This document shows positions 4,256-53,400 of a stretch of 63,665 nucleotides of DNA, piece after piece. Source of the stretch: a virus. Taxonomy: Duplodnaviria > Caudoviricetes. A program made the translations under genes and the position numbers. The DNA lies in IMG/VR virus record IMGVR_UViG_3300032296_000732, positions 1-63,665 of that record; one strand, 5' to 3'. Positions within the stretch are counted from its first letter, which is position 1; the number at the start of each line of letters is the position of its first letter. The notes beneath the pieces were generated by a model that was not told where the DNA came from, made no database searches, and saw only the letters and a list, made by a program, of their open reading frames with translations.

Positions 4256-5043
4256 ACCCGTACAAAATCAGTGAACCAACGTGCATCAGCTTTTCGGGCG
4301 GCAGAACGTCTGCTTATATGCTTTACAAGGTGTTGGAAGCCAACGACATGAAGCTGCCAGAAGAAGCGATTGTCTGCTTTGCCAACACGGGGAAAGAGGA
4401 TGAGGCTACGCTGCGGTTTGTGCATGACTGCCAACAAAACTGGTCGGTGCCGATTGTTTGGTTAGAGTATCAGCGTGAAGAGCTTGGCTACAAAGTCGTG
4501 AACTTTGAAACAGCTAGCCGCAACGGTGAGCCTTTTGAGGCGTTGATTAAAAAGAAAAACTACCTGCCAAATCCTATTGCTAGGTTTTGCACCGAAGAAC
4601 TCAAGGTCAAAGCCATCAATAAGTATTTGCGTGATGAGGGGATTGATGCCTCTACGATGGTTGGCATCCGTGCCGATGAACCAAGGCGCATCAGTAAGCT
4701 GCGTGCGCGGGGTCTGCTTGTCCCGCTCTTTGATGCTGGCGTCACGCAAGATGCTGTGCAAACATTCTGGAAAGCGCAGCCATTCAATCTGGGCTTGCCA
4801 TTTCAAAATAACGTCACGCCCTTGGGCAACTGTGATCTGTGTTTTCTCAAAGGCCCGCAGCAAATCATGGGTCTGATCAAAGATAATCCAGATCGTGCGG
4901 TTTGGTGGGCCAAGATGGAGGGGGTTATTGGTGCTACTTTTAGATCAGACCGACCCGGCTACTCTGAGATGCACAAATACCTCAACGCTCAGTCAGATAT
5001 GTTCGACAGCCAAGGCGGCATCGAATGCTTTTGTGGAGAGTAA
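4252..5043 (+). CDS. PAPS-reductase-family (PP-loop) protein
   Basis: ISFSGGRTS PP-loop, FANTGKE, RFCT.ELK, GIRADE, GNCDLCFLK. Confidence 0.8.
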   Translation: MNPYKISEPTCISFSGGRTSAYMLYKVLEANDMKLPEEAIVCFANTGKEDEATLRFVHDCQQNWSVPIVWLEYQREELGYKVVNFETASRNGEPFEALIKKKNYLPNPIARFCTEELKVKAINKYLRDEGIDASTMVGIRADEPRRISKLRARGLLVPLFDAGVTQDAVQTFWKAQPFNLGLPFQNNVTPLGNCDLCFLKGPQQIMGLIKDNPDRAVWWAKMEGVIGATFRSDRPGYSEMHKYLNAQSDMFDSQGGIECFCGE

Positions 5044-5062
5044 CAGCTGTTACACTGAGAAA

Positions 5063-5337
5063 GTTGGTGGTTAAGCCTTCTCATACACTACGCGGGTGTT
5101 TGTATGAGACTGGTCGGACTGGGGGTTCTCGGTTGCCACCAACAACCAAGACGCATGGGGATTGAGGCACAGGCCCGTAGATTACATTCTGCGAATGCCG
5201 GTCAGGTTAAGAGCGTGAATGCCTGCTCTCTGGCTACAGTCCCCAGCCGTGTTGGTGGTACAACGGGTTAGCGCCGTTGAATGGCCTTTCGGTTGTTGAA
5301 GATACCCACTGCTTTATGTGAGCCACCAATTTTTTTT
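5063..5337 (+). ncRNA. candidate cassette of three structured RNA elements
   Basis: Closing stems GTTGGTGG/CCACCAAC (5063/5136), ACCAAGACG+TGGGGATTG/CAGTCCCCA+CGTGTTGGT (5145-5256), TTGGTGG/CCACCAA (5252/5323) followed by a T-run. Confidence 0.45.
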
Positions 5338-5345
5338 GAAAGTAG

Positions 5346-5376
5346 TTGACACGGCCCCAAAAGTTGTGTTTATAAT
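5346..5376 (+). promoter_or_regulatory. sigma70-type promoter
   Basis: Perfect TTGACA (5346) and TATAAT (5371), 19-nt spacer. Confidence 0.65.
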
Positions 5377-5380
5377 CATC

Positions 5381-5507
5381 CCAGCTAGGTGTGAGAACCA
5401 AGGCAGGTAAAGAGTCGTTAGTGAAATCCCGACCCCGAATGGGGTAGCGCGTCAGCCCACAAAGCTGAGGTGTTTTCTCACCGGGGTTTCACTAACGGCT
5501 TTTTTTT
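5381..5507 (+). ncRNA. c4/CI-like antisense RNA with upstream target boxes and intrinsic terminator
   Basis: 18-bp stem 5414-5431/5482-5499 plus T8; inner hairpins; AGCTG (5463) and TTCTCAC (5475) complementary to upstream CAGCT (5382) and GTGAGAA (5391). Confidence 0.6.
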
Positions 5508-5838
5508 GCCCCAAACGATCTCCACGCCCAGCCGTACTCCGCACGATAGCAAGCACTTGAATCGGTGGCGCGGAAGAAAAGACACGGCATACTCGACACC
5601 CCGGTTTGCCGTACCAGCCTGTCAGCGAGGGACTGGTGTAGTCGTCAGGACAAGGGTGGAATAACCAAGCCTGACGATGAATGAATCGCTGCCTCCGGGG
5701 GACTGGGATCGGGCTTCACGCTTGGTCTGGGTCGGGGTCTAATCCACCCCTTGGGGAAACTAGAGGCGTAAAATGCAACAGATGAATTGTTGCGAGGTCA
5801 TGTGTGATATAGGTAAACCCTAACAAACAACAGGAGAA

Positions 5839-6654
5839 TTGATGAAAAAACTTAATCTTGCGGTCATTCGGATCGATGGTGACACCCAAGCGAGGGAGGC
5901 ACTCTCTCAGGAAAAGGTCAACGAATACGCTGAGTTGATGAAGGACGGGGCAGTGTTCCCCGCCATCGAGGTGTTCTTTGATGGCAGCGAATACTGGCTT
6001 GCTGATGGATTTCACCGTTACTTTGCTACGAAAGCCAACGGGGTTGTGAGCATTGAGGCGAATGTGCATACGGGTACTCTTGAAGAGGCGCAGCTCTATG
6101 CTTGCGGGGCCAACAAGGGTCGCGGCCTTGAGATGTCTTGGAAAGATATCCGTCACGTTGTCATGCGGATGCTGCGTCACGTTACATGGGGCAAGTGGAC
6201 GAATGCAGAGATTGCCCGCCATGTGGGGTGCTCAAAGATGACTGTCGGGCGCGTTAAGGCATCGATGGAGCAGCCGCAAGAAGAGACAAAAGAAGAGACA
6301 AAGAAAACGTACCGCAACAAGCATGGGCAAGAGAAGACGATTGAGACAAAGAATCTCGGGCGCAAAAAGGCAGAGGAAGAGGTTGATGAGGATCATCGCG
6401 TAGTTGAGCTGACCGATACCGTAAACGACCTGAGTAATGAGAATCAGGCGCTGCGCGACAAGATAGCGATTGGTCAATGGGATGCCAGCGACATTGAGAA
6501 GATCGATGTGCAAGACACCATCGCTGAACTGCGAGAGCAGATTCGGGTGCTGGAGATTGACAACAAGGCGCTGCGTGAGTCACGCGATATGTTTCAGACC
6601 CGGAATGCAGAACTCATGCGAACAGTCAAAGCGTTGCAAAACAAACTGAAATAA
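5839..6654 (+). CDS. ParB/Srx-like N-terminal domain protein with HTH and coiled coil
   Basis: FPAIEVF...LADGFHRYFA (ParB GxxR), EIARHVGCSKMTVGRV HTH; RBS GGAG. Confidence 0.8.
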   Translation: MMKKLNLAVIRIDGDTQAREALSQEKVNEYAELMKDGAVFPAIEVFFDGSEYWLADGFHRYFATKANGVVSIEANVHTGTLEEAQLYACGANKGRGLEMSWKDIRHVVMRMLRHVTWGKWTNAEIARHVGCSKMTVGRVKASMEQPQEETKEETKKTYRNKHGQEKTIETKNLGRKKAEEEVDEDHRVVELTDTVNDLSNENQALRDKIAIGQWDASDIEKIDVQDTIAELREQIRVLEIDNKALRESRDMFQTRNAELMRTVKALQNKLK

Positions 6655-6702
6655 GGGGCACTGTCCCGACCCACACCAGAGGGCTTCTGGAAGGAAAAGA
6701 TC

Positions 6703-8190
6703 ATGGAATTAAATCTGAGGCCGCATCAGATGGAAGTCATAGATGCGTTGAGAGAAGGTTTTAAACAGGGCCACAAGAGCCAGCTGCTGTACGCCCCCAC
6801 GGGGTTTGGCAAGACCGAGGTAGCAATTGCCTTGATGAAGGCCACAGCAGACAAGTTTAAGCGTGCGGCTATCGTGCTGGACAGGCTTGTGTTGGTAGAT
6901 CAAACCAGCATGAGGCTGTCCAAGTATGGTCTAGAGCATGGCGTGTATCAGTCAGGCCATTGGAAATTCAACAGATCAGAGAGGCTGCAAGTCTGCTCCG
7001 CGCAGACACTGGAGAGTCGGGATGACTTTCCTGCGGTCGATTTGCTGATTGTTGATGAGTGCCACATTGCCCGAAAGCAAACCACCGAGTTCATCAAGGC
7101 CAACCCCGAAATCAAAGTGGTGGGCCTGACCGCTACGCCTTTTACAAAAGGGCTAGGCAACATCTACGAAAACGTGGTGTGTGGTGCAACCAACGGCTGG
7201 CTTGTCGATAACAACTGGCTAACCCCTTTGCGGGTGTATATCGCAAAAGAGATAGACATGACCGGGGCCAAGAAGATCGGCGGGGAGTGGAGTCAGGATA
7301 TCGCCACCAAACGCGGTATGCAGATCACCGGGGACATTGTCGAAGAGTGGATTAAGAAGACGCACGAGATTTATGGAAGACCGCGCAAGACGATTGTCTT
7401 TTGTGCGGGTGTAGCCCACGGCGCTGACCTTGTCCAGCAGTTTGCCGAGAAGGGATACAACTTCATCTCCATATCCTACAAGGATGATGATGAGTTCAAG
7501 CGTCAGGCGATTGAAGACTTTGCCAAGCCCGACACCGAGATCAACGGCTTGATTGCCACCGACATTCTGACAAGGGGCTTTGATGTACCTGATGTGATGA
7601 TCGGTGTATCAGCAAGGCCGTTCTCTAAATCCTTGTCGAGTCATGTGCAGCAGATGGGGCGAGTCATGCGCCCATGTGATGGTAAAGAGTTTGCGCTCTG
7701 GCTTGATCACTCGGGTAACTATCTGCGGTTCAGGTCTGATTGGGATGACCTGTATGTGGACGGCGTATCTGATCTTGATACCAAGGTGGAGAAGCCCAAG
7801 AAAGAGCCAACAGACTTGGAGAAAACAGAATCCAAGTGTCCTGCTTGCGGGCATCTTTGGCACGCCAATCAGGATGCTTGTCCGGCCTGCGGTCATGTGC
7901 GGCAAAGGCGCAATGAAATCGCATCGGTTGCGGGGCAGCTGGTTGAGCTGACAAACGGCGCTCGGGCGCACAAGGATGACAAGCAGAAGTTTTATTCTGA
8001 ATTGATTTACTTTGCAAAGCAGCGCAACTACAACCCAAACTGGGCGGGGCATAAGTTCAAAGAGAGGTTCGGGATGTGGCCCAAAGGATTGAACGAGCTG
8101 CCATCTTTCACAAGTCTCGAAACCGCGAAGTGGATTCAAAGCCGCAACATCGCATGGGCAAGATCAAAGAGGTCAAAAAATGCAGTTTGA
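6703..8190 (+). CDS. SF2 DEAD/H helicase with zinc finger
   Basis: APTGFGKT, DECH, TATP, QQMGRVMR, CPACG..CPACG. Confidence 0.92.
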   Translation: MELNLRPHQMEVIDALREGFKQGHKSQLLYAPTGFGKTEVAIALMKATADKFKRAAIVLDRLVLVDQTSMRLSKYGLEHGVYQSGHWKFNRSERLQVCSAQTLESRDDFPAVDLLIVDECHIARKQTTEFIKANPEIKVVGLTATPFTKGLGNIYENVVCGATNGWLVDNNWLTPLRVYIAKEIDMTGAKKIGGEWSQDIATKRGMQITGDIVEEWIKKTHEIYGRPRKTIVFCAGVAHGADLVQQFAEKGYNFISISYKDDDEFKRQAIEDFAKPDTEINGLIATDILTRGFDVPDVMIGVSARPFSKSLSSHVQQMGRVMRPCDGKEFALWLDHSGNYLRFRSDWDDLYVDGVSDLDTKVEKPKKEPTDLEKTESKCPACGHLWHANQDACPACGHVRQRRNEIASVAGQLVELTNGARAHKDDKQKFYSELIYFAKQRNYNPNWAGHKFKERFGMWPKGLNELPSFTSLETAKWIQSRNIAWARSKRSKNAV

Positions 8191-9013
8191 AGAATTTGCA
8201 AGGCATCACGGCTTGATCATCGACCGTTTAGTGCCGGACAGATGGGTGCGTGTACCAACAGAAGATCACCCGCGCAAACGTAACGGCGGGTACAAGTTTC
8301 TTGGTGATGTGGGATGGGTGCAAAACTGGGCCACGATGCTCACGCCCGAGATGTGGCGCAGCAGCGAGGACGTAAAGCCGATACAGATTCGCCAGCTACA
8401 GAAAAAAGCGGAGCAAGATCGTCAGGAATCCATGAGACAGGCAGCGGCCAAAGCGGGATGGATCATGCACCAATGCACATCAGACATTCACCCTTACCTA
8501 AAGAAGAAGGGGTTCCCCGAAGAAATTGGCAACGTCTGGCGCAACGAGGAATCAGTCCTAGTGATACCAATGCGAAAGGACGGGCGATTGACTGGGTGTC
8601 AACTCATCAATGAAGAGGGGAAAAAGAAGTTCTTGTATGGACAGCAAACGAAGGGGGCATCGTTTGTGATTGACGCAAAAGGTCTTCCGATTTTCTGCGA
8701 GGGATACGCCACAGCACTCAGCATCAGGGCCGTTATGAAGGCCATGAAGGTGCGGTACACCATCTATGTGTGTTTCTCGGCAGCTAACATAAAGGAAGTA
8801 GCAAGGGACATCAGCGGGGGGGTGGTAGTTGCCGACTGCGATCAAAACGCAGTCGGTCAACAAGCCGCGCTGGATACAGGCAAGCCATATTGGATTTCCG
8901 GGACAGTCGGTGAGGACTTTAATGATTACCATATGCGCGTTGGTCTGTTCAAGGCATCTAACTCGCTCAAGCAAGCTCTTTTTTCTGGTGGAAGCGGTGC
9001 AGTAGTCGGATAA
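8180..9013 (+). CDS. Toprim-domain primase-like protein
   Basis: CEGYATALS, VVADCD, EDFND Toprim motifs; adjacent to the helicase. Confidence 0.8.
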   Translation: MQFEEFARHHGLIIDRLVPDRWVRVPTEDHPRKRNGGYKFLGDVGWVQNWATMLTPEMWRSSEDVKPIQIRQLQKKAEQDRQESMRQAAAKAGWIMHQCTSDIHPYLKKKGFPEEIGNVWRNEESVLVIPMRKDGRLTGCQLINEEGKKKFLYGQQTKGASFVIDAKGLPIFCEGYATALSIRAVMKAMKVRYTIYVCFSAANIKEVARDISGGVVVADCDQNAVGQQAALDTGKPYWISGTVGEDFNDYHMRVGLFKASNSLKQALFSGGSGAVVG

Positions 9014-9257: not shown

Positions 9258-9258
9258 A

Positions 9259-9381: not shown

Positions 9382-9382
9382 G

Positions 9383-9595
9383 TTAAATGCGGGTTGATGG
9401 GCCATAAAACTGTGCGAGGTCTTCGCCTGTTTCTGTTTCGGGTTCTGCGGGGATCAGATACTCGGATGCGTAACTGATGGACATATCCTCCACATCTGAC
9501 GGATGTACGCCGTTAAGTTCTTCGGGCGTCCAAAGTATCACGGCCCAACCTTCAGCCCTGAGTTCGCGGATAGCTTTTAATTGTGATGCGGTCAT
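9383..9595 (-). CDS. early hypothetical protein
   Basis: RBS AAGGAG and ATGA coupling, start MTASQL. Confidence 0.65.
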   Translation of the reverse strand: MTASQLKAIRELRAEGWAVILWTPEELNGVHPSDVEDMSISYASEYLIPAEPETETGEDLAQFYGPSTRI

Positions 9596-10047
9596 GCTGT
9601 CTCTCCTTGTGGCCCATTTTCTTGCCAAATTGATTCGGCTTGATCTTCAACCTCAGTTAATGCGGCATCAAACCGCTTGCGGTATTCGGAGGATGTTTCC
9701 TCCAACTGCTTGGATTCAATTTCAATTTCATCAGTGCCATAATCCACGCCCTCGACAATGCTCCCCAATGTAAAAGACACGGCCAATTGACCTCGCTCGT
9801 CCATTGCTTTCCAAGTTCCCAATTCTTCCAATTCATCTCCAGCAACCGTTTTGCGCACCACTTGTTCATGGTAGTCATCAAAACAGGTTCCTGATACTTC
9901 CAAATATTGAATTGTCATGCTGATGTACGCACCGCAATCGGTGTACTTGTACACCTGTTGAAGCAACTCGGCGGGACTATCGGCATCTGGGAATGCCTCC
10001 GCAAAATAGCGGTTACTTAGCTGGTCTTGATCGTCCGAATCTCTCAT
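9592..10047 (-). CDS. early hypothetical protein (acidic)
   Basis: RBS AAGGAG and ATGA coupling. Confidence 0.7.
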   Translation of the reverse strand: MRDSDDQDQLSNRYFAEAFPDADSPAELLQQVYKYTDCGAYISMTIQYLEVSGTCFDDYHEQVVRKTVAGDELEELGTWKAMDERGQLAVSFTLGSIVEGVDYGTDEIEIESKQLEETSSEYRKRFDAALTEVEDQAESIWQENGPQGETA

Positions 10048-10262
10048 GCTGTCTCTCCTTGTGAGCCATTTGATTGGGTTTTGTCTATTGGAAGAAAATT
10101 TTCAAATACCAAAATGGAATCAATTTCCCAATGCCCATCGTCTTTGTAATAGTCTTGCGCCACCTCTTTCCACGCCAAAGCCTCGGCCTCATCTGCTGAT
10201 TCGGCCTCCACCTCAATGTTGATGTAACTGGTGCGCCTAAGTTCAATTTGGTATGTCTTCAT
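10044..10262 (-). CDS. early hypothetical protein (V.AES.DEA family)
   Basis: IEVEAESADEAEALA; coupled. Confidence 0.7.
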   Translation of the reverse strand: MKTYQIELRRTSYINIEVEAESADEAEALAWKEVAQDYYKDDGHWEIDSILVFENFLPIDKTQSNGSQGETA

Positions 10263-10465
10263 GCTGTCTCTCCTTCGGGGAAAAATGTGACGTTATGGAT
10301 TTCGCAGTCGGGGTATGAGTTTTCGGCCTGTTCTGCGGCATGGTCATCGTCCTCTGCATAGCAGTCGAACACGGTGGTAAACCTGTCCCCCTTGTCTTCC
10401 GCAAGTGTCACGCGATACGGAATCAGGTTGGGATTGTCTGCAAGTATTTGTGCTTGGGTTTTCAT
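10259..10465 (-). CDS. early hypothetical protein
   Basis: CYAEDDDHAAEQAENSYP; coupled. Confidence 0.7.
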   Translation of the reverse strand: MKTQAQILADNPNLIPYRVTLAEDKGDRFTTVFDCYAEDDDHAAEQAENSYPDCEIHNVTFFPEGETA

Positions 10466-10469
10466 GCTG

Positions 10470-10751
10470 TTACCTTTCAGAATCTAAATGGAGGGCTGTT
10501 TCAAAAATCTCAGGGTATGTGCTTTGCAGATAGTGCTGCGCTGCCTCTAAGACTGCGCCAATGTCGGCATCTGTGGGCCATGTGTTGCAAACGTCCAGCT
10601 GGTCGAGCAATTCGATGCGGTCGGCATAGACCACCACTTGCAAAATGCCATCTCCATCAGTGCAATACGATGTAAGCCAATCATCATGTTTGTCGCCATG
10701 CATGATGTACCAAGTGATCTTGGATGAATCAATTGTTTTGAGTCGTGTCAT
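10470..10751 (-). CDS. early hypothetical protein
   Basis: Start MTRLKT with RBS AAGG, ATGA-coupled. Confidence 0.6.
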   Translation of the reverse strand: MTRLKTIDSSKITWYIMHGDKHDDWLTSYCTDGDGILQVVVYADRIELLDQLDVCNTWPTDADIGAVLEAAQHYLQSTYPEIFETALHLDSER

Positions 10752-10947
10752 GTGCTGACCTTTCGTAATGAGAATGTGTAGCTGGAACCACCAAGGTGAT
10801 AGTCCCTGCTTTCGTAATTGATGTGGCAAATACGCAACCTTCCAGCAATGCCGAATTTTGCTCGGGCCTGACGCAAAGCCTCGCGCCAAGTTTGCGCGGC
10901 GACTTCCCTATGCCAAGTGCCGTGATCGGAAAACAAAAATAGGTCAT
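10748..10947 (-). pseudogene. early gene with apparent frameshift near its start
   Basis: GGAGG-ATG at 10947 is in one frame and the coupled stop at 10748 in another; switch at a T5 run. Confidence 0.5.
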
Positions 10948-11183
10948 TTTTGGGCCTCCACGGGTGACCATGTGTTGCTATCGTCAAGGTGTGCAAACGG
11001 TGAGACATAACCCGTCAATGCGTTGATCGCGTCTTCGCACTCGTTTACAAGGCGGCAAAAATCCTCGCGGGATGATTCGCCAAACTCAGCAGCAGCTGCA
11101 TGAGCAAGCGCAAAAGTGTCGAGGGGCTGGTTACCTAGCCGCGCTGCATATGCGGTAACAAATGGTGTGATGTTGTGTTTCAT
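10944..11183 (-). CDS. early hypothetical protein
   Basis: ATGA-coupled ORF. Confidence 0.65.
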   Translation of the reverse strand: MKHNITPFVTAYAARLGNQPLDTFALAHAAAAEFGESSREDFCRLVNECEDAINALTGYVSPFAHLDDSNTWSPVEAQK

Positions 11184-11341
11184 TCTTCGGTCTCCACAAG
11201 TTCGCCTTTGTCACTCTCCAAGCCGCAAAGGTTGTTGTCCTGTAAGTGGTGATACAAGGCTTCATCGTGTAGTTCTTTGAGCGCAGCCTCTGCGGTTTCG
11301 CCCCGTACCCAAATGGTGCATTCAAATTTGTATAAGTTCAT
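11180..11341 (-). CDS. early hypothetical protein, 53 aa (not in ORF track)
   Basis: MNLYKFECTIWVRGETAEAALKEL...VETEE*; coupled at both ends. Confidence 0.6.
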   Translation of the reverse strand: MNLYKFECTIWVRGETAEAALKELHDEALYHHLQDNNLCGLESDKGELVETEE

Positions 11342-11523
11342 GCTGCACCCCAAACCAACGACAAACGCTTGGTGTCGATATCCTGTTTAATCAATTCAGC
11401 AGCCAGCACGTTCGGTTTGACCCCGTGATGTTCGGCGGCATCCACGCAGGCATCAATCGGGTTGATACATTGCTGGTTTCTCATGTAGATGTATGTCTTT
11501 ATCGCGTCCATATCAGTTCCCAA
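11338..11523 (-). CDS. early hypothetical protein
   Basis: Stop coupled to the downstream start. Confidence 0.55.
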   Translation of the reverse strand: MGTDMDAIKTYIYMRNQQCINPIDACVDAAEHHGVKPNVLAAELIKQDIDTKRLSLVWGAA

Positions 11524-11585
11524 TGAAAAGAAAAGAAAAAATCACGGCTAGCCAAAAAGCGGCGACTAGCCAAGCCGCTAGACGG

Positions 11586-11780
11586 TCATTCAATTTGTGG
11601 CGTGATGGTCACGCTCTTGAACCCGTATGTAATGGTGACTTCTTCGCCATTGCCCAAAGCCCTGCGGAAATCTGCGATCTGTCCCTGCCCGAAATAAATC
11701 ATGGTCGCGGCGCGGCACAATGCGCCTTCGGGCGTGTCGGCTTTGTACGGCTCACCCTTGCCATAAATGAGGTATGTCAT
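11586..11780 (-). CDS. early hypothetical protein
   Basis: ATGA-coupled ORF. Confidence 0.6.
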   Translation of the reverse strand: MTYLIYGKGEPYKADTPEGALCRAATMIYFGQGQIADFRRALGNGEEVTITYGFKSVTITPQIE

Positions 11781-11977
11781 GCTGTCTCAATCGTGTTTGT
11801 TGTGACCCATTCCCCACGGTCACCATTCCAAGTGACTTCGGGTAGCGTGATCTTGTAATGCGCGACTACTTGCATAGCCTCGCCTAGTGTTTTTTTGTAG
11901 TCGCAAAGGGGTGAACCCTGATGGATCAGTGTCCAGCCCCGTTCCGAGTAAGACAAGTGGGTTTTGTGGTCGGTCAT
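11777..11977 (-). CDS. early hypothetical protein
   Basis: ATGA-coupled ORF. Confidence 0.65.
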   Translation of the reverse strand: MTDHKTHLSYSERGWTLIHQGSPLCDYKKTLGEAMQVVAHYKITLPEVTWNGDRGEWVTTNTIETA

Positions 11978-12234
11978 GCTGTAACCCTGTAAGAGTTGTA
12001 ATTGCGGATGCGGCTTTCCCCGTTTGTGTGGTGTTCATCAAACGAAAATTCTTCGCCAGCTGCCCTAAGTGCTGCAAGGTAAACGGCGAGGTCGCAATCT
12101 TCTTCAAGAAATACGGTATCGCCCTTGACATAGGAATAACTGCTGATTTTTTGCGTTATGTCCAAGCGTTCAAGTTCGGATAATTTGACTGCTGCCCAAC
12201 CGTGACCGGGGTCGGTGTAAATGGTGATTTTCAT
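11974..12234 (-). CDS. early conserved phage protein (DPGHGW...LEEDCD family)
   Basis: TDPGHGWAAV...ISSYSY...FLEEDCD; RBS GGAG. Confidence 0.7.
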   Translation of the reverse strand: MKITIYTDPGHGWAAVKLSELERLDITQKISSYSYVKGDTVFLEEDCDLAVYLAALRAAGEEFSFDEHHTNGESRIRNYNSYRVTA

Positions 12235-12294
12235 AAAAGCTCCGTTATCGGGCGGGATTGCCCACGATAGGGGAACGGCCCCTATCATTGGAAA

Positions 12295-12579
12295 TCAGCG
12301 CAGTTCACGGGCGGGTATGTGTCCGTGTTCGCGCATGAATTGATCGACTGTCAGGTTTTTGGCCTTGTAGGTGTCGCCGAATTTGGTAAAGCATGAATAG
12401 ACTGCTTCGCCCTCGCTGTTGTGGCGCAATGCTTCGCCGACTAAAAAGTTATGTCCCAGCATTTTGCGCGGCGGTACGGCCCCCAGCATTTCCCAATACA
12501 TGGCTTCGGTGGTCGGTATCCATGCATCAGGGTTCGCGTCCATTGCATCCCACAGTTCTTGCCATTCCAGATTTTTCAT
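12295..12579 (-). CDS. early hypothetical protein (DUF1419-like)
   Basis: YWEMLGAVPP...FLVGE; RBS GGAGG. Confidence 0.6.
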   Translation of the reverse strand: MKNLEWQELWDAMDANPDAWIPTTEAMYWEMLGAVPPRKMLGHNFLVGEALRHNSEGEAVYSCFTKFGDTYKAKNLTVDQFMREHGHIPARELR

Positions 12580-12833
12580 TTCAGACCTCCCGTCCAAACC
12601 TCGCCCAAATCCTGCCAGCACTTCCAGGACTCCAAAACGTTTGACCCGTAACGGGGCTTTGTGGTTCGTATGTTGACGTAACGCATTTCCGAGCGTTTAC
12701 GCGCTGCCCGTTCGATTTGTTCGGCTTGTTGCAGGGTTTCGCATTCAATGATCAATTTGTTGATCTTGCCCTTAGCCATACCCCAACCCGACATAAATTT
12801 GTCGGTCATAGTTACAAAAAAAGCTGTTTTCAT
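12576..12833 (-). CDS. early conserved phage protein
   Basis: VTMTDKFMSGWG.A.GKINK...RSEMRYVNI. Confidence 0.7.
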   Translation of the reverse strand: MKTAFFVTMTDKFMSGWGMAKGKINKLIIECETLQQAEQIERAARKRSEMRYVNIRTTKPRYGSNVLESWKCWQDLGEVWTGGLK

Positions 12834-12900
12834 TTTGTGCCTTGGTTGTTCGGTGAAAAGTCACCCGCTAGCCCACAGTCATGGGCTAACAGTTGTCCTT

Positions 12901-13104
12901 TCAAGCTCCAATCATGGTTAAAAAAGTTTCTCCCCGAATTGCTCGGTTATCGATTCTTGCGTTTCCGTGGCCTTGTCTTTTGTAGTGAGCAACAGCGCGT
13001 TTGGCTTGTTCTTCGGTGCTGTAAACGTCCAGACAATCGCGGCCACTGGTCGTGAAGAAAACAAGGAAAATTGAAGCGGCTTTGTCGGTGGTTTCTTGGT
13101 TCAT
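12901..13104 (-). CDS. early hypothetical protein
   Basis: 67-aa ORF in the - strand block. Confidence 0.55.
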   Translation of the reverse strand: MNQETTDKAASIFLVFFTTSGRDCLDVYSTEEQAKRAVAHYKRQGHGNARIDNRAIRGETFLTMIGA

Positions 13105-13120
13105 TTTTTCCGCCAGTCAG

Positions 13121-13297: not shown

Positions 13298-13304
13298 GTT
13301 TTCC

Positions 13305-14265: not shown

Positions 14266-14358
14266 ATCAGCCGCTTCGCTATGTGCATCCCCTTACATAG
14301 CAATCTGCTCACTAGATCAGGCCAAATTGCGTTACGTCCCTCAATACAAAATCTCACA

Positions 14359-14413
14359 GTAACAGGTGTTACACTGAGGGTTTCTACCTAGTGTAACAGG
14401 TGTTACACTGAGA
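14359..14413 (+). repeat. two copies of the genome-wide motif GTAACAGGTGTTACACTGAG
   Basis: Copies at 14359 and 14393; others at 5040, 28168, 52244 (-), core only at 52513. Confidence 0.85.
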
Positions 14414-14529
14414 ATAGGGGTGGGGGGTATCAGGTTTTTTGCGCGAGAGGGGGGGGTGTATGTTTGTAGAAAGACCCCCGGTATATAATCGGTATAAAAT
14501 AGGGGTGGGGTATATTTTTGGAGAAAATT

Positions 14530-14754
14530 ATGACACCGGCGCAGCGAGAGATTTACTTGGTGATTGATGAGTGGTGGAAGAGGAATGGGTTTGGTCCGTC
14601 TGTGGATGATGTGATGACGATGACTGGCGAGACTGGGCGCGGGAATGTTCACAGGAAGATGTTGAAGTTGGTGGAGTTGGGGATATGCAAGGCGCTCAAG
14701 AACCGTCCTCGGTCGATTCGGCCTGCTAATTTGAGGGTTAGGGACATTCTATGA
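14530..14754 (+). CDS. LexA-like winged-helix DNA-binding protein
   Basis: MTPAQREIY...GFGPSVDDV...GNVHRKMLKLVELG...RPRSI. Confidence 0.7.
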   Translation: MTPAQREIYLVIDEWWKRNGFGPSVDDVMTMTGETGRGNVHRKMLKLVELGICKALKNRPRSIRPANLRVRDIL

Positions 14755-27766: not shown

Positions 27767-28698
27767 TGGCAAAAACTACCGGCACCACGGCATTTAACCT
27801 CGACATGAACGACCTCATTGAGGAGGCGTTTGAGCGTTGCGGTCAAGAACTTCGTACAGGCTACAACTTCCGCACGGCACGTCGGTCGTTGAACCTGTTG
27901 ACGATTGAGTGGGCCAACCGTGGGCTGAACTTCTGGACGGTTGAGCAGGGCCAGATTCCTATGGTGACGGGGCAGGCTATCTACCCCATGCCTACGGACA
28001 CAATCGATTTGCTTGACATGGTAATCCGCCAAAGCAACGGCACGTCCAACCAGATTGACATCAACATCAGCGGTATCTCTGAATCGACCTACATGAGCTT
28101 GCCAAACAAGTTGGCACAAGGTCGTCCAATTCAGGTCTGGTACAACCGTCAGTCAGGTCAGGAAAACGTAACAGCTGTTACACTGACCGCCGCAATCAAT
28201 TCTACAGATACCACCATCACGGTCTCGGATGTTTCCGCTCTTGCAACCGCTGGATTTATCAAGATTGACAACGAAACAATCAGTTACCCCAACGTAGACC
28301 CCGTAAACAACCAGTTGATCAACTGCGCACGTGGGCAGAACTACACAACGGCGGCATCCCATGCAAGTGGCGCGGTGCTAACGGTACAGAATTTACCCGC
28401 CATCAATGTGTGGCCCACACCCAACGCCCCCGGCGATCAGTACATGTTCGTGTACTACCGCATGCGCCGCATCCAAGATGCTGGCTCCGGTGTGACGGTT
28501 CAAGACATTCCGTTCCGTTTTATCCCTTGCATGGTGGCAGGGTTGGCGTATCTGTTGAGCATGAAGCTGCCGGATGTTGACCCTAATCGTGTGATGGGGT
28601 TGAAGGCCGAGTACGAGCAGCAGTGGGAATTGGCGCAAGCGGAAGATCGAGAAACAGCTCCATTACGGTTCGTGCCTAGGAACATGTTCTATGCCTAA
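27766..28698 (+). CDS. head-tail adaptor / tail tubular protein-like
   Basis: IEEAFERCG...ARRSLNLL..EWANRG...IPFRFIPCMVAGLAY. Confidence 0.6.
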   Translation: MAKTTGTTAFNLDMNDLIEEAFERCGQELRTGYNFRTARRSLNLLTIEWANRGLNFWTVEQGQIPMVTGQAIYPMPTDTIDLLDMVIRQSNGTSNQIDINISGISESTYMSLPNKLAQGRPIQVWYNRQSGQENVTAVTLTAAINSTDTTITVSDVSALATAGFIKIDNETISYPNVDPVNNQLINCARGQNYTTAASHASGAVLTVQNLPAINVWPTPNAPGDQYMFVYYRMRRIQDAGSGVTVQDIPFRFIPCMVAGLAYLLSMKLPDVDPNRVMGLKAEYEQQWELAQAEDRETAPLRFVPRNMFYA

Positions 28699-35147: not shown

Positions 35148-35149
35148 CC

Positions 35150-36541: not shown

Positions 36542-36550
36542 GGACGCATC

Positions 36551-49086: not shown

Positions 49087-49088
49087 TC

Positions 49089-50420
49089 ATGAGCATCGCT
49101 CAAAGCATCCTAGCTAACCCCGAGAAATACTCGCTGGAACAACTGACGCAGGGCGTTGAAAACGGCGTGATACCGGCGTACATCGGCGTGCCAATCATCC
49201 AAGAGATGTTGCAAAAGCAGTCTCAAGCTGCTGCCATGGGTGGTCAGCAGATGCCGCCCGTCATGGATCAAGTGATGGCTCAGGCTGCACAGGGTCTGGA
49301 GACGCTGCCGTCTAATTTGCCTGAAAGCTACGCTGGTGGCGGCATCATTGCGTTCTCTCCCGGCGGCTCGACTAGTTTGACGCCTGCCGAAGTTGAAGCA
49401 GAACTTGAGCGGGCATCCCGTGAAGCAAATCAAGCGCAGACAGACCCAAGCAGGTTTTCAAATTTACGATCTTTTGTGGATGAGTACAGAAGCCTCATGC
49501 CGGAAAAGGACCCAAGAATAGCTGCCTACGAGGCGTCTATTATGAAGTCGCCTGAGCAGTTGGATGCCCGTAAAAAGCAAGACATGAATTTGGCACTTGC
49601 TCAGTTTGGTTTGAATCTTATGGGGTCAAAGTCACGCACGTTGGCGGGCGGTATTGGCGAGGCAGGCGCTCAGGCCATGCCTTCAGTACAGGCTGCAATG
49701 CTCTCGCGCAGAACAGCAGAGGACGCGGCGCTTAAAGCTCAGGCCGATTTGGCAAGAGGCGAGAGGGCCGAAGGCATTGCCGCACTTCAAGGCGGTTTGG
49801 GTCTTTACGGTAAAGCAGAAGACCGGATATCAGAAGAGCTTAGAGCCAAGCTGCAACGCGAGGCTGCATTGATTACGGGCAATAAGCCGACCGACATGGT
49901 TAACTATGTCAACACTTTTGTCCGTAATGCGCAGGCAGACCCAGACAACAAAAAGTCGGCAGATGCTTTGGCGCTGGAGGGGTATCAGAAGTACTTCACC
50001 GAGGGTCCAAGGCTTCCCGGTCAGGCGCTTGCGGTTCAACAAGGTATCGCAGGTGGGGCGCAGGCCGTTCAAGCGGCAGGACAAGACGTTACTCGTGAAG
50101 GTCAAGCGGCAACACTGAGAAGCAATGCAATCAAACAGTTCAATGATTTGAAACTGACTGATCCTATCAAGCGTGAATATGGCAGACTTGCAGCCGAAGA
50201 CAAAAAGAACAAGGCAGCTGGAAACCCGACCACCCTAGCAGATCAATACAGACAAAGAGAGATTGATAAAATGGCAGCGCCTCCGGCTTCAAGTGCTCCG
50301 GCAGCCGGACAACCTCAACTTCCACCGGGCGTTCCACCGGGGTCAACTTATGGTAAAAAAGTGGCCGGGAAAGGGACGGAAGTTATTTACAACGGTAAAG
50401 TAATTGGATACGCCAATTGA
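49089..50420 (+). CDS. putative ejection protein
   Basis: Helical, YAGGGIIAF; lies between the ejection protein and the giant gene. Confidence 0.6.
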   Translation: MSIAQSILANPEKYSLEQLTQGVENGVIPAYIGVPIIQEMLQKQSQAAAMGGQQMPPVMDQVMAQAAQGLETLPSNLPESYAGGGIIAFSPGGSTSLTPAEVEAELERASREANQAQTDPSRFSNLRSFVDEYRSLMPEKDPRIAAYEASIMKSPEQLDARKKQDMNLALAQFGLNLMGSKSRTLAGGIGEAGAQAMPSVQAAMLSRRTAEDAALKAQADLARGERAEGIAALQGGLGLYGKAEDRISEELRAKLQREAALITGNKPTDMVNYVNTFVRNAQADPDNKKSADALALEGYQKYFTEGPRLPGQALAVQQGIAGGAQAVQAAGQDVTREGQAATLRSNAIKQFNDLKLTDPIKREYGRLAAEDKKNKAAGNPTTLADQYRQREIDKMAAPPASSAPAAGQPQLPPGVPPGSTYGKKVAGKGTEVIYNGKVIGYAN

Positions 50421-50421
50421 T

Positions 50422-53400
50422 ATGGCTCAAAATTTCACCACCTTCACGCCGTTAGATACCGCTCCTAAATTCACCACTTTCACGCCTTTGGAGTCAGTGG
50501 CACCAAGCGTGGAAGATGAGGAAAGAAAAAAGCGGGAACAGACTCGTCGGCCAGAACAAGCCGCACCTGACATCCCTGCCGTGGGGACGATGGGCAATTT
50601 GTCTGATTTCTTTCCTGAGCCTGATGCTCAACCTCAAGCAGCGCCACAAACAAAAGGCGTGATCCAGCGTGTTGGTGATTTTTTCCGTCCGGAATTCAAA
50701 AGCGTTTTAGAGACGCCCCCGACAGCCGAGCAGCAGCAGCAAAACCGTGACCGTCGCTTATCCTACGGCGCAGGTCCAATCAATCAGCAAACCGAATCTG
50801 CTGCCAGCCTCTTGCGTTCTGGCGAGACTGGGACGCAAAGTCAAACTGTTCGCAGGGTTGCAAAAGCTATGGAAGAGCAGGGTCAACCGACCTTTGCTGA
50901 CATGGCTGCTAGAGCCAAGAGACCCGCAATCGTTCAGGCCGAGAGAGATGCCAAGGCCGAGGAGTTTCGCAGTGCTGGTGAGTGGGCTGCTGATACGCTG
51001 TCAGGTATTAGTCAGGGCACAGTCGGCTTGGTTGAGTTGCCACTGAATATCTTTGCGCCCAGCGGCGGCTTGGCAAAATCCTTGCGCGAAACGCAAAAGG
51101 AATTGCAAGCTCAAGAATCAGATGTGCTTAAGGCGCAACGGGCGCAGCTGCTTGAGCGTGTGCAGAACGAAGATGGCTTCTTTGGTAAGTACTTTGCCAC
51201 TGTTGAAAGCCTGATTACAAATCCTGCGATGGGTCTTTCTGAGGCCGTAAAGCAGGTGCCCAATTTCTTGAGCATCGTTGGTGCGGCCAAGCTGGGTACA
51301 GCCCTTACTGGTGCAGCGGTACACACAGCGAGTCGCGTTAGCCCAACCATAGCTTTGGCGGAGGCTATCAGCGGTAATGCCCTGTTGACCGGGGCGAGAG
51401 CTGCGGGCGCAACAGCTGGCGGTATAAGTGCTGCTACGCTGATGACCAGCGGTGATGCGGCGGGTAATGTCTACCAGACACTGACCGATCCCAAAAAAAC
51501 CCCGATGTCGGTTTGGCGCACAAACCCGGACTTTCAAAGTCTTGTTGCTCAAGGCAAAACACCCAAGCAAGCCATTGAAGAAATCTCAACAGCCAAGGCA
51601 CGTTTAGCTGCGGCCATCGTTGCTCCTTTGGGCGTGCTGGGATTCATGGGCGCTGAAGCGGCGTTTGTCGCGCAGGGCGGAATACGTGCTGCAATGCAGG
51701 CGGCAACACCCAAAGGCGCGGCCAAACTGGTCGGCAAAGAAATAGGACTAGAGCAAATTCAAGAAGGCGGCACGCAAGTAGGCGGTAACGTTGCCTCGCA
51801 GACGGTTAATCCACAGCAGAGTTTGCTTGAGGGCGTACCTGAAGCCATGGCGACTGCTGCTGTTACGTCGGGACCTTTCGCTGGTGCGGCTGTTGCACGG
51901 CAAATGCTGCAAGATCAACAAGCGCAAGTTGATCCTTTTGCCGAGGCTGAAGCCCGCAGAAGGCTTGATGTTCAATCATACGATCCCGGTCTTGTTGACC
52001 CTGCTTCTACTCGTCGGCCAACAGACTTTGATGCAGGCAAGAGACCGGATCAGTTGCTTGATGAGCGAGATGCAAGGATTGAACCCACGCTTGACGATGA
52101 AGCACTTATGAAGCAACCCTCCCCTCCAGTGGTGGGGGATGAGCTGTCCATGCAGGGTGATATACCGGGGATGGCCACTGAGGGCGACATAGCTGAGACT
52201 GATGTATCTCTTGCTCCGGGTGACACGTCAGTTACTCCGCCGGTCAGTGTAACACCTGTTACTCCTGTATCGACGCAAACACCAACCAAAGACAAATGGT
52301 TGAAAGCGATCAACGACCAAAACCGCTTGCAGCCAGAAGGCGGTGTGCAGTTAACAGTCACGCCCGAAGGCAAGCTCAATTTTATGGGCGACCCTAGCGC
52401 AACAAAGCAGGGCAGGGCGCTTGAGGCAACTTTAAACGAGGCCATCAAGGCTGGTGCAACGGTTGAAGAAATAGCCGCGTCCATTAACAGCGCCAAACAG
52501 CCCGCTCCACCAGTAACACCTGTTACTCTACCCCCTCCGACCAAAGCTGCCGAGTCTCTGCCCGAGACGCCAACAGTGCCGCCGGTAACGACACCCAAGC
52601 TGTTTGAGCCGCCAGTTGCTGGTCATGCTGTGGCTGACTTCCCTGTCGTTCAGGTGCCCGTGGCCGACCTTAAATTGTCGGAGGACGTGCCGCAATTCAA
52701 AGCTGGTGCGACTGACAAGGGCGTGGTTGATCCGTTGACCGGCAAATTCACACAAGAAGGCGTAGCGCCAATTGCTGTTTGGCGCAGGCTTGATGGCACG
52801 CTGGAGGTAATTTCTGGCCGTCATCGTTTGGACCTTGCGCAGCGCAGCAAGACCAAGTTCATCAATGCTCAGGTATACGACGAGGCCCAAGGGTTCACTG
52901 CTGTAGATGCCTCTACGCTGGATGCAGAGTTAAACATACGGGACGAGCAAGGAAAGGTAAAGGACTATGTCAACTTCTTCAAAGCAAGCGGTACGGACCG
53001 GGAAACAGCCGAGTCAAAAGGACTTCTGGGACGGGTTAAGGGCAAGCGGGGTTTCGCAATCGCAAATCAAGGATCGGATGCTCTCATTACCGCGCTTAAC
53101 GGAGATCAAGTCGGCGACGAAGCGGCGTACTACATCGCGATAAACGCACCGAATGACGAGAGGCTGCAAGGCGTGGGTCTTCAGTCAATCATGGATGGCA
53201 AGTCTATGAACGCGGCTGTAAACACCATGCAAGCCGTTAAGGCTATGGCGGCAGAGCGGGACACGACAGCCGACATGTTCGGGTTTGACGATAGCCTGAT
53301 CAAAGAAGCACAAGAGATGGCAAAGATTGCCTCCAAGATGCAGCAGTCTATTGCCTCCCGCTTGTCTGCTATTTCTGGTGCAGCAAAGAATCCTGCCATG

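Follow-up and report, generated by a model that had tools for sequence, protein, structure and literature searches.

Which protein, if any, reads a 19-bp motif that recurs along a phage genome, between genes and also inside them, is the question raised by this stretch of DNA. The window, meaning the whole stretch analysed, is an entire virus record of 63,665 bp (CheckV 100%). An exact search of the whole window found five copies of GTAACAGSTGTTACACTGA, four on the forward strand and one on the reverse strand, where 0.01 were expected. The search listed eight matches, three of which are reverse-strand self-overlaps of palindromic copies. Eight or more matches occurred in none of 100 shuffles, and the reversed control pattern gave 0 matches. 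The 14-bp core GTAACANNTGTTAC has six exact matches against 0.16 expected (0 of 100 shuffles), five of them being the full 19-mer copies. An earlier note on this DNA had described a dispersed 19-bp motif, present also inside genes, with a further palindromic core at 52513; the counts confirm both, the latter as the sixth exact core match. The sites and the other features are collected in the table.

Coordinates of the sites and associated features in the window
Feature	Position	Strand	Description
Site 1	5040..5058	+	exact 19-mer
Site 2	14359..14377	+	exact 19-mer, TerS-wHTH intergenic leader
Site 3	14390..14411	+	exact 19-mer at 14393-14411, 34 bp from site 2
Site 4	28168..28186	+	exact 19-mer in SU10-adaptor-like gene; codes VTAVTL, variable segment
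Site 5	52244..52262	-	exact 19-mer in 2921-aa giant ORF, aa ~615; codes VTPVT
Site 6	52513..52526	not assigned	core-only copy GTAACACCTGTTAC in giant ORF, aa ~703
Weak candidate site	59591..59609	+	divergent RusA-exo region, 10 bp from RusA start
Sigma-70-type promoter	5346..5376	+	TTGACA-N19-TATAAT
ParB-like protein	5839..6654	+	proposed reader, 271 aa; PHROGs, AF2, Foldseek, sequence comparison
wHTH gene	14518..14754	+	78 aa, LexA-DNA-binding-domain-like; just downstream of sites 2 and 3
ParB_N-like segment of giant protein	52606..53343 (approx.)	+	motifs ISGRHRL and ELNIRDE; lead only

The 19-mer consists of the better-conserved arm and the inner core of a 24-bp palindrome, TCAGTGTAACA-SS-TGTTACACTGA. 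The best palindrome of the window is site 3, AGTGTAACAGGTGTTACACT, with arms of 9 bp. ACTGA is present on one side only in four of the five full copies, so pairing cannot account for the asymmetry of the motif. The first bases of site 1 overlap the TAA stop of a PAPS-reductase-like gene, and the ParB-like gene lies 0.8 kb downstream of it. Between them, about 290 bp downstream of site 1, stands the sole consensus sigma-70-type promoter of the window, which is conserved in the related records G002, G004 and G006. The coding copies are found, as had been proposed, in linker-like and variable stretches, namely VTAVTL in the adaptor and, in the giant ORF, VTPVT within Pro/Thr-rich parts. The supposed 2-mismatch variant at 59591 has two mismatches in the 14-bp core and five in the 19-mer by letter count, so that the description holds for the core and not for the 19-mer, and it is not among the 19-mer matches at up to 3 mismatches. 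The window has five two-mismatch core matches where about 1.6 matches are expected at up to two mismatches, so the match at 59591 is by itself not above chance. It is kept as a candidate solely by its place in the RusA-exo region, where G008 and G013 have perfect sites.

The central 16 bp of the palindrome is colinear with chromosomal parS, whose consensus is TGTTNCACGTGAAACA according to the available text of PMC7022226. The six 16-mers of the window are identical to it at 9-11 of 16 positions, in register. They differ from parS by reading AA/TT in place of TT/AA at positions 4-5 and 12-13, by a variable central pair, with a spacer of 0-2 bp in relatives, and by an extension of the site to 24 bp with extra arms.

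The proposed reader is encoded by the 5839 gene, the first of a block encoding a ParB-like protein, an SF2 helicase and a Toprim primase. Its 271-aa product matches PHROG 1033, 'ParB-like partition protein', with an E value of 2.4e-19. It starts with a ParB/Srx N-domain (residues 1-~95), continues with an HTH (~122-144) whose recognition helix is HVGCSKMTVGRVKA, and has, after a disordered linker, a coiled coil (185-270) at its C-terminus. The AF2 model (pLDDT 79.7) has a long coiled coil after the N-terminal and DNA-binding domains. Foldseek aligned residues 1-~150 with the N-terminal and DNA-binding domains of ParB/Noc/KorB proteins (E 8e-9 to 7e-7, 145-154 columns). The protein is thus predicted to combine a ParB/Srx fold at its N-terminus with a subsequent HTH DNA-binding domain, and the first of the two ParB-like domains named in the earlier note is confirmed by PHROGs, the model and Foldseek.

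The nucleotide-binding part of the protein is less canonical. In Box I, Q17 and R19 do not vary. The canonical arginine patch of ParB Box II is GERRxR; here Box II is not GERRxR but DGFHRY (in ADGFHRYFA), and G57, F58, H59 and R60 are invariant in 14 relatives. The protein is below the threshold of Pfam ParB_N, and its PDB phmmer matches reach E values of only 0.02-0.06. Because of this Box II, the sub-threshold ParB_N score and the weak PDB phmmer matches, a CTP clamp cannot be assumed. Nucleotide specificity is not predicted by sequence or by AF3, according to the available part of PMC12704722. The ParA-binding motif given in that text, (L/F/I)G(K/R)G(L/F/I) (PMC12704722), is absent from the N-terminus of the protein as read by eye. 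The earlier remark that no ParA can be seen is borne out, since neither PHROGs, over the 88 ORFs, nor the Pfam scans (25 + 62 ORFs) recognised a ParA-type ATPase. Neither PHROGs nor Pfam recognised a KorA-like protein in the window ORFs.

A motif search in related phages, which the earlier note had advised, recovered the inner core at syntenic places. The IMG/VR relatives number roughly 570. The element shared among relatives is TAACA-N0-2-TGTTA, with lineage-specific outer arms. This core occurs 1-9 times per record in 14 records (51 sites in total; expected 0.03-0.57 per record). Of the loci fetched via the wHTH gene, 39 of 80 contain it, and of those fetched via the ParB-like gene, 55 of 80. 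ORF-free DNA holds 15 of the 51 sites versus 2.9 expected. The syntenic places are the TerS-wHTH gap, the region upstream of the ParB-like gene, the RusA-exo gap and the inside of the giant ORF. The copies in the TerS-wHTH gap, downstream of TerS and upstream of TerL, are the best conserved and often tandem, and at least one site is present there in 13 of 13 core-bearing records covering that place. A homologue of site 1 is found upstream of the ParB-like gene in G001, G002, G004, G006 and G011. A site within about 1 kb upstream of this gene is found in only 6 of the 12 core-bearing records having the gene. In G002 the site and the -35 of the conserved promoter are ~20 bp apart, whereas the window equivalent is ~290 bp away. 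Across lineages, the outer arms show compensatory changes that preserve the palindrome. The spacer between the core halves varies between 0 and 2 bp even inside one genome (G008, G011), which is awkward for a rigid dimer.

The coding copies had been suggested to be under selection at the DNA level, and this was upheld for one of them and not for the other. A site in the 5' portion of the giant ORF is retained at the DNA level by all 8 records examined. It keeps the arms of its lineage while the encoded peptide changes (VTPVT, VTAVT, ITPVT, LTDVR, LTMLV and ANTVS) and the flanks are unalike, a pattern that points to selection on the DNA. In contrast, no site is present at the homologous codons of the 28168 copy in 8 of 8 relatives with an aligned homologous segment. 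Site 4 thus appears to be specific to the lineage of the window.

The presence of the core was compared with the proteins encoded in the relatives. G010, G015 and G017 keep TerS, wHTH, helicase and primase, and of the ParB-like protein they have only a C-terminal piece of ~105 aa. These three records contain 0 cores, and palindromes with arms of at least 9 bp are absent from G010 and G015. In a matrix of 87 window proteins by 11 records, no protein except the ParB-like one follows the presence and absence of the core; an SSB-like 91-aa protein was set aside once its homologues had been traced in all 11 records. Among 45 distinct variants of the recognition helix, the core is in the locus for 33 of 37 variants with Met at helix position 3 and for 0 of 8 non-Met variants (Fisher p = 2.3e-6, with related variants counted as independent and no correction for phylogeny). 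The other 4 of the 37 Met-type variants are without a core. The ParB-like loci without a core amount to 25 of 80; many of these, not all, are short.

Several non-Met helices are accompanied by other palindromes: NRST by TGTTGCACGTGCAACA, which stands at the TerS-wHTH place of G024, SIST..Q by TGTTCA-G-TGAACA, and HSAT by TTGCA-N-TGCAA. An exact host-type parS is present in the TerS-wHTH leader of seven relatives. In an unrelated high-GC MAG contig, CAGGTGTAACA-NN-TGTTACACCTG occurs twice within a 277-aa ParB-like gene, just 3' of the HTH (…TSAMT…), and an SF2 helicase and a primase-like ORF come after this gene. The helix accounts for only part of the site, since the outer arms differ among relatives with an identical 14-aa helix (the arms end with GG in loci L158-162 versus the CACTG type in L164). 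By comparison across the family, the core tracks the 271-aa ParB-like protein, both in its presence and in its recognition helix.

The second ParB-like domain of the earlier note, within the giant protein, stays at the level of a lead. Pfam, hhalign and PDB phmmer were all negative for this segment, while its ESM-Atlas neighbours are ParB_N clusters at 0.95. It is present in only 3 of 12 relatives searched, and relatives without it have sites as well. The giant protein is therefore not the likely reader of the sites, a role in which it had been proposed.

These comparisons suggest that the 19-mer sites are probably a private variant of parS and serve as putative docking sites of a ParB-like protein, encoded by this freshwater phage, for which no partner was recognised in the window. 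The earlier idea of parS-like sites is supported by the colinearity with parS and by the inner core tracking the 271-aa protein. The six copies would be the cognate docking sites of this protein. A dimer held by the C-terminal coiled coil would place one HTH on each half-site, and the helix S-x-M-T-V-G-R would read the inner TAACA. Within each site, one half-site would be full length (TCAGTGTAACA) and the other often just GTAACA.

Compared with ParB(Spo0J)-parS, the 16-bp palindrome shares its register, the protein has a ParB-like N-terminal domain and HTH, and a site stands in or beside a gene with a ParB-like domain (the giant ORF and the high-GC contig). In B. subtilis, a parS lies within spo0J. 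The ParABS system differs in its ParA, its ParA-binding motif and its GERRxR, none of which was found here, and the phage sites are not clustered near an origin.

For the function of such docking, we tentatively favour a KorB-like regulator or organiser, which may nucleate at the heads of three gene blocks (ParB-helicase-primase, exo-Erf-SSB, and wHTH-TerL with the structural genes) and in the giant ORF. Docked there, the protein would control the blocks or coordinate them, perhaps through spreading or sliding. This reading is drawn from the position of the sites alone: they stand ahead of the wHTH-TerL block, upstream of the conserved promoter before the ParB-like gene and, in G008 and G013, in the RusA-exo region. 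Six dispersed palindromic sites, some intragenic, were found in the window, and in G002 a site stands near a promoter (~20 bp), as for KorB-OB of RK2 (IncP-1), where one palindrome type is likewise scattered over a mobile genome in promoter-near, distant and intragenic copies. Both proteins have a ParB-fold N-terminal domain and HTH, the Foldseek matches include KorB (8qa8/8qa9), and the placement of the sites would fit action on several operons. IncC, a partner of KorB, is a ParA homologue. KorB of RK2 is a CTPase clamp with the partner KorA, as described in the available text of PMC11790492. In contrast, neither a KorA-type nor an IncC-type partner was found here by PHROGs or Pfam, Box II of the phage protein is DGFHRY, and its proposed dimerisation module is the long coiled coil. 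The element that bears the sites also differs, being a phage without detected lysogeny genes, with lineage-specific outer arms on the sites.

The main rival to the KorB-like reading, which we consider unlikely, is that the ParB-like protein initiates replication by binding origins, as lambda O does, and that the sites are origins or places of primosome loading. The conserved C-terminal coiled coil would then recruit the neighbouring SF2 helicase and primase. The conserved gene order of the block is consistent with this, as is the high-GC contig, where the palindromes lie in the ParB-like gene directly before helicase and primase. In G010, G015 and G017 the C-terminal module persists by itself before the helicase and therefore has a role apart from DNA reading, and PHROGs and Pfam found no phage DNA polymerase in the window ORFs. 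Lambda O, too, is a DNA-binding protein encoded before helicase/primase functions, and the ori-lambda iterons lie within the O gene, as the sites of the high-GC contig lie within their own ParB-like gene. However, the fold of lambda O differs, and lambda has one origin, whereas the window has six dispersed sites, two in a structural ORF, the nearest of them 0.8 kb upstream of the gene; the most conserved sites are beside the terminase genes. Relatives without the DNA-binding half still replicate, and GC skew tracks gene strand only.

It is improbable, in our estimate, that the sites are true centromeres for partition or anchoring of an unintegrated genome in a carrier state or pseudolysogeny. 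Because the phage is without ParA, such partition would have to invoke host ParA/SMC. Besides the resemblance to parS and the exact host-type parS in seven relatives, there is a precedent in N15, whose IR1-4 lie scattered over the genome. In this prophage-plasmid the ParB homologue SopB has four IR centromere sites, IR1-4, as stated in the available part of PMC7205306; the phage genome here would likewise carry several ParB-family binding palindromes and not one centromere. N15 differs by having SopA (a ParA) and by its stable inheritance as a plasmid prophage; genes for lysogeny or plasmid maintenance were not detected here, and none of the 88 ORFs is a ParA, integrase, repressor or plasmid replication gene. 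The missing ParA-binding motif and the position of the sites, which are not gathered in one cluster but stand at the heads of operons, also argue against partition.

Two further readings are very improbable. In the first, the sites serve a host protein (of ParB/Noc type or another palindrome reader) or form a structural hairpin (terminator, RNase III site or cruciform), and no phage protein reads them. The likeness to parS, the palindrome-preserving changes of the arms and a Verrucomicrobia MAG with 7 copies of a near-identical palindrome fit this. Apart from that MAG, a scan of 596 Gb of genomes found no genome rich in the exact site, only single matches near chance (at least 120 listed; our own estimate of the chance number is ~140-280). 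The one-sided ACTGA in four of five full copies speaks against a hairpin, and the RNA folds at the sites are weak (-4.7 to -10.7 kcal/mol, z +0.6 to -2.6) with no U-run. Between close relatives the arms change, which is what a co-evolving factor of the phage would lead one to expect.

In the second, the sites are the operator of the 78-aa wHTH, for autoregulation and late control. In many relatives the wHTH start is preceded, at a distance of 110-160 bp, by one or more sites, and the protein resembles LexA in Pfam LexA_DNA_bind (E 5.6e-5, 23.3 bits versus a cut-off of 23.7) and NCBIfam lexA (E 6.4e-6, far below cut-off), both matches being below the cut-off. Only the part like the DNA-binding domain is present, and the self-cleaving S24 domain of LexA is missing. 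No co-variation of the site with the wHTH protein was found, and it was rejected as reader. The wHTH is identical in G003, G004 and G006, yet their arms differ (CAGTG versus CACTA). Its helix G-R-G-N-V-x-R-K-M is unchanged in G009, G012, G024 (other core) and G017 (no site), and the site-less G010 and G015 have G-R-G-N-I-A-R-K-M. The sites of the high-GC contig, within the ParB-like gene, also speak against a wHTH operator. The LexA-like protein, which had been named as a possible binder, is thus a poor candidate.

So is TerS, likewise named earlier: a pac-type packaging signal of the small terminase would fit the best-conserved, often tandem copies directly 3' of TerS and 5' of TerL, but it is the least probable reading of all and a single pac region near terS was rejected, since conserved copies occupy four or more distant places, including the ParB-like, RusA-exo and giant-ORF places, several pac sites per genome would fragment a headful series, site-less relatives keep TerS and TerL, and the core co-varies with the ParB-like helix.

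ParA-less ParB-fold proteins are a frequent feature of mobile elements, and what they do in phages is largely open, according to the available part of PMC12704722. VirB of Shigella (PMC10653881) and BisD of ICEclc (PMC12409273) are described in the accessible text of these papers as ParB-like transcription factors that use CTP. Like the protein proposed here, they are orphan ParB-fold proteins of mobile elements, with loading at specific sites and action on distant promoters. Unlike the phage protein, they act in cells as anti-silencer or activator with demonstrated use of CTP, and no homology to it closer than the shared fold was found. A literature search, subscription-only papers excluded, found no paper that describes a network of sites like this one in a comparable phage.

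A broader reading, which we hold to be rather unlikely, is that widespread freshwater and marine tailed phages without lysogeny genes possess a KorB-like genome-wide circuit in which core and helix co-evolve and a host parS recruits ParB/SMC. In such a circuit, the orphan ParB-fold protein would dock on a few private 'dialect' sites of parS type, and the lineage-drifting outer arms would mark the phage's own DNA. Docking would couple the replication, recombination and packaging blocks, and some relatives would additionally or instead place an exact host parS by the terminase genes, recruiting host ParB/SMC.

The analysis yields a testable pair of protein and site, namely the 271-aa protein with the predicted specificity residue Met134 (S-K-M-T) and the 24-bp palindrome. 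The natural swap variants in relatives, with NRST, HSAT and SIST helices and other cores, are ready controls of specificity. A question raised by the family is why some relatives bear the host's own parS beside the packaging genes. If the binding is true, site-loaded regulators of the KorB/VirB/BisD type would be extended to phages without sign of lysogeny, and the family would offer a view of how parS specificity diversifies.

The 19-bp motif GTAACAGSTGTTACACTGA is present in five exact copies in the window (5040+, 14359+, 14393+, 28168+ and 52244-) versus 0.01 expected, which bears out the claim of an earlier note that it is dispersed across the genome and also lies inside genes. Its exact 14-bp core, GTAACANNTGTTAC, occurs six times, at these five places and at 52513, versus 0.16 expected. 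The variant noted earlier at 59591 stands only in part: it has 2 mismatches in the 14-bp core, but 5 in the 19-mer, and on its own it does not exceed chance. Similarity between the flanks of the window copies ends at the motif. The motif is completed in relatives to a 24-bp palindrome, TCAGTGTAACA-GG-TGTTACACTGA, found in 10 of 16 exact-match stretches of IMG/VR. All full window copies keep the right arm TGTTACACTGA, and their left arm is complete only to GTAACA; between the two arms, 7–9 of the 11 positions can pair. Across the central 16 bp, TGTAACA-GG-TGTTACA, the sites agree in register with chromosomal parS, for which PMC7022226 gives the consensus TGTTNCACGTGAAACA, at 9–11 of 16 letters. 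This register check showed that the site is colinear with parS and ruled out an "everted parS" with swapped half-sites. A hairpin, terminator or RNase III site was rejected because the folds are weak and a U-run is absent at the motif copies. The G-run GGGGTGGGG, considered as a component of a motif spread over the genome, was also discarded, as its 15 matches equal chance (15.2 expected).

The phage is a member of a large uncultured family. IMG/VR contains 233 relatives detected via the wHTH gene and 572 via the ParB-like gene; the best 80 loci of each set were fetched, plus 19 related records. No nucleotide-level relative was found among GenBank phages. By TerL protein, the nearest are the Pelagibacter phages HTVC027P, HTVC023P and others (~50% identity), and the gene layout of HTVC027P is unlike that of the window. 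The inner core common to the relatives, TAACA-N0-2-TGTTA, is present 1–9 times per record in 14 records (51 sites in total; 0.03–0.57 expected per record), and is lacking in 25 of the 80 fetched ParB-like loci. The spacer between the half-sites differs even within single genomes. The outer arms are palindromic and lineage-specific (CAGTG, CACTA, CACTC, TACTT, GGGGC, AACTA and others). ORFs were called greedily on purpose, and still 15 of the 51 family sites are in ORF-free DNA versus 2.9 expected. All 13 core-bearing records covering the TerS|wHTH leader have at least one site there, often as tandems of 2–4 copies spaced 34–41 bp. Six of 12 records also have a site in the ~1 kb preceding the ParB-like gene, three (G008, G013, G016) have one in the RusA|exo region, and all eight records examined have one towards the 5' end of the giant ORF.

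The coding copies gave a divided answer to the proposal that they are selected at the DNA level. For the site in the giant ORF, each lineage keeps its own arms while the flanks are unalike and the encoded peptide changes (VTPVT, VTAVT, ITPVT, LTDVR, LTMLV, ANTVS), which points to selection on the DNA. In contrast, eight relatives lack the adaptor copy (28168) at the corresponding codons, and, judged from this alignment, it is a gain in the window's lineage alone.

The TerS|wHTH leader contains other elements. Blocks conserved between the relatives and 14266–14517 are a TGCATAGTATTCCACAC-like box, which has diverged in the window, then the palindromes, one G-run, one C-run and another G-run; after the latter comes TATAT(T)n, immediately ahead of the wHTH gene. 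Pairing between the C- and G-runs could give alternative hairpins. In seven relatives (loci L039, L049, L050 of G009, L051, L088 of G012, L186 and L190), an exact host-type parS, TGTT(T/C)CACGTGAAACA, with a C-run behind it, lies in this leader at ~45 bp before the wHTH gene and may recruit host ParB to the phage DNA. L186 and L190 also have the family's own palindrome ~90 bp from it.

The record (63,665 bp, GC 51.7%) is 100% complete by CheckV, and GC skew tracks gene strand only. Annotation with PHROGs (88 ORFs) and Pfam (87 ORFs) recognized no ParA, in agreement with the earlier note, and no integrase, repressor or DNA polymerase. No tRNA was found in the window, and no Rfam family reached its gathering score.

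Main features of the window around the dispersed sites
Feature	Position	Strand	Remark
PAPS-reductase-like gene	4252-5043	+	stop codon inside the site at 5040
Non-coding stretch	5044-5838		795 bp
Promoter, sigma-70-type consensus TTGACA-N19-TATAAT	5346-5376		only such promoter in the window
Long-hairpin RNA, ~110 nt, with U-run	5383-5512		MFE -67.5 kcal/mol, z -8.1
ParB-like gene	5839-6654	+	
SF2 helicase	6703-8190	+	
Toprim primase	8180-9013	+	
Small genes	9592-13351	-	
TerS	13597-14265	+	weak match
Tandem sites	14359, 14393	+	
wHTH	14518-14754	+	78 aa, LexA-DBD-like
TerL with intein	14751-17189	+	
SU10-adaptor-like gene	27766-28698	+	among structural genes; contains the site at 28168
Giant ORF	50404-59169	+	2921 aa, polyvalent-type (LPD38, GHKL ATPase); contains the sites at 52244 and 52513
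RusA	59225-59581	-	
Exonuclease, Erf, SSB-like protein	59707 onward	+	

Several side observations were made on this layout. The TerL intein matches Pfam Intein_splicing at residues 255–535, and contigs of three metagenome runs join ~15445–15464 to ~16362–16371, indicating that intein-less TerL alleles circulate. Three tandem paralogues of ~470 aa each with Vgb_lyase-like beta-propeller matches are located at 33705–37936; they have the 11-mer ACAAAATGAAT in common (seven copies) and are probably diversified tail-fibre or receptor-binding modules. Among the minus-strand small genes, four stop/start overlaps (9592, 10044, 10259 and 11777) have the 11–12 bp junction TCATGCTGTCT in common, which looks like conserved translational coupling. 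Freshwater and lake metagenome contigs of several studies contain parts of the window; the 22 runs listed all have it in contigs, and none is an RNA run. For four of these runs, no difference within a motif copy is among the 40 listed. One contig from another study (X2) spans 14274–15067, including the tandem sites, with 0 letters changed.

The 271-aa ParB-like protein was modelled by AF2 with a mean pLDDT of 79.7. Residues 1 to ~150 are predicted as a ParB/Srx N-domain plus HTH, residues 147–187 as disordered and residues 185–270 as a long coiled coil. Foldseek matched residues 1–150 to NTD+DBD structures of ParB, Noc and KorB (E 8e-9 to 7e-7). Matches by sequence alone were weak (PDB phmmer E 0.02–0.06; Pfam ParB_N below threshold). 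Q17 and R19 of Box I and G57-F-H-R60 of Box II are invariant in 14 relatives, and this Box II differs from GERRxR. As stated in PMC12704722, the ParB fold may bind CTP, ATP or GTP, and the sequence does not predict which. A dimer joined by its coiled coil, with a flexible linker, might accommodate the variation of the spacer by 0–2 bp.

Among the window proteins, only the DNA-binding part of the ParB-like protein matches the core in presence and absence. Every core-bearing record has it, whereas in G010, G015 and G017, which have no sites, a ~105-aa C-terminal piece is all that remains of the protein. Of 45 recognition-helix variants, 37 have Met as third residue (S-x-M-T-V-G-R), and the core was found in the locus for 33 of these but for 0 of the 8 others (Fisher p = 2.3e-6, kinship among variants ignored). 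Different palindromes accompany the non-Met helices: NRST with TGTTGCACGTGCAACA, SIST..Q with TGTTCA-G-TGAACA, and HSAT with TTGCA-N-TGCAA. Against such reading, relatives that share the same helix can have different outer arms. The LexA-like wHTH, which the earlier note listed for binding tests, was rejected as the reader, as it follows neither arms nor core: G003, G004 and G006 encode one identical protein but differ in the arms, and the helix is the same again in G009, G012 and G024, which have another core, and in the site-less G017. In the site-less G010 and G015 this helix is GRGNIARKM. A 91-aa protein after Erf was rejected as a phyletic match, since it is SSB-like with homologues in all records. 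The product of the neighbouring PAPS-reductase-like gene, considered as a co-factor in the manner of an IbrA/IbrB-like pair, was rejected, being present in only 2 of the 11 records of the protein matrix.

When 596 Gb of genomes were scanned for GTGTAACANNTGTTAC AC-type sites, single matches were at about chance level, and two contigs had two copies each. On one of these, the high-GC MAG contig L352, both palindromes are located inside a 277-aa ParB-like ORF, just after its HTH (…LGTSAMTILRD…). The order at 391–7026 of L352 is the ParB-like gene (NTD, HTH, coiled coil), a second DGQHR protein, an SF2 helicase and a primase-like ORF, which is the module layout of 5839–9013 of the window at much higher GC. 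Protein kind, helix type, site and gene neighbourhood thus recur together in unrelated sequence. Separately, a Verrucomicrobia subdivision 6 MAG (G027; contigs C17, C25, C38 and C41) has seven copies of AAAGTGTAACACGTGTTACACTTT in 1.4 Mb, four of them within 1.5 kb; the core is that of the phage site, and this is possibly the organism's own parS variant.

Upstream of the ParB-like gene, a site, the promoter, the hairpin RNA and ~330 nt of non-coding sequence follow in this order. The last, 3' of the hairpin RNA, is strongly conserved in the related records G002, G004 and G006. The distance from site to -35 is ~20 bp in G002 and ~290 bp in the window. Rfam gave one chance-level mir-191 match and no family on 5040–5860, and 5346–5800, preceding the ParB-like gene, is a candidate for one or more new ncRNAs.

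Sites precede the three main gene blocks, and we tentatively regard the ParB-like protein and its sites as a regulatory or organizing system. Regulation is favoured because proximal, distal and intragenic palindromes with a ParA-less ParB-fold HTH protein as their probable reader resemble KorB/OB. The KorB and OB sites of RK2 are the closest known system, with one palindrome in promoter-proximal, distal and intragenic copies, as described in PMC11790492. The main rival is that the sites mark an origin. It is consistent with the ParB-like gene standing ahead of helicase and primase, with the palindromes inside the ParB-like gene of L352 and with the coiled-coil module surviving alone, and it seems unlikely to us. 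Less probable still is partition in a carrier state. The earlier note had also proposed loading or reading by the giant protein, whose segment at 52606–53343 (aa 735–980) has the ParB Box II/III-like motifs ISGRHRL and ELNIRDE. By sequence comparison this is unlikely: ESM-Atlas neighbours in ParB_N clusters at 0.95 are the sole support for ParB likeness, whereas Pfam, hhalign and PDB phmmer were all negative and just 3 of 12 relatives searched have a homologue. Packaging sites bound by TerS are likewise unlikely, as TerS and TerL are retained in site-less relatives and conserved sites also occur at a distance from the terminase genes.

PMC12704722 is a survey of orphan ParB-fold proteins in mobile elements, phages included, and ParB-like regulators of plasmids and ICEs are represented by KorB (PMC11790492), VirB (PMC10653881) and BisD (PMC12409273). 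A phage ParB activating a thymine dioxygenase is described in PMC13229309; unlike that system, no such enzyme was found in the window, where the scanned ORFs (PHROGs/Pfam) included no TET/JBP-like partner. In the literature searched (subscription-only papers excluded), no dispersed parS-type network was found described for a phage without lysogeny genes. The cultured, virulent Vibrio phage CHOED (NC_023863.2; L350 and L351) encodes a ParB/StrR-like protein, CHOED_083, ~31% identical over NTD-HTH. Its genome contains ~19 copies of the near-palindrome CAAATCAGACACTGTCGGATTTG and ~13 copies of AAAGGTACACCTTATAGAG, the latter probably phage-RNAP promoters. CHOED may thus allow ParB-like proteins that occur together with dispersed palindromes to be studied in culture. 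In the proposed mechanism, the ParB-like protein of the window would be a regulator or organizer acting from the sites that head the gene blocks.
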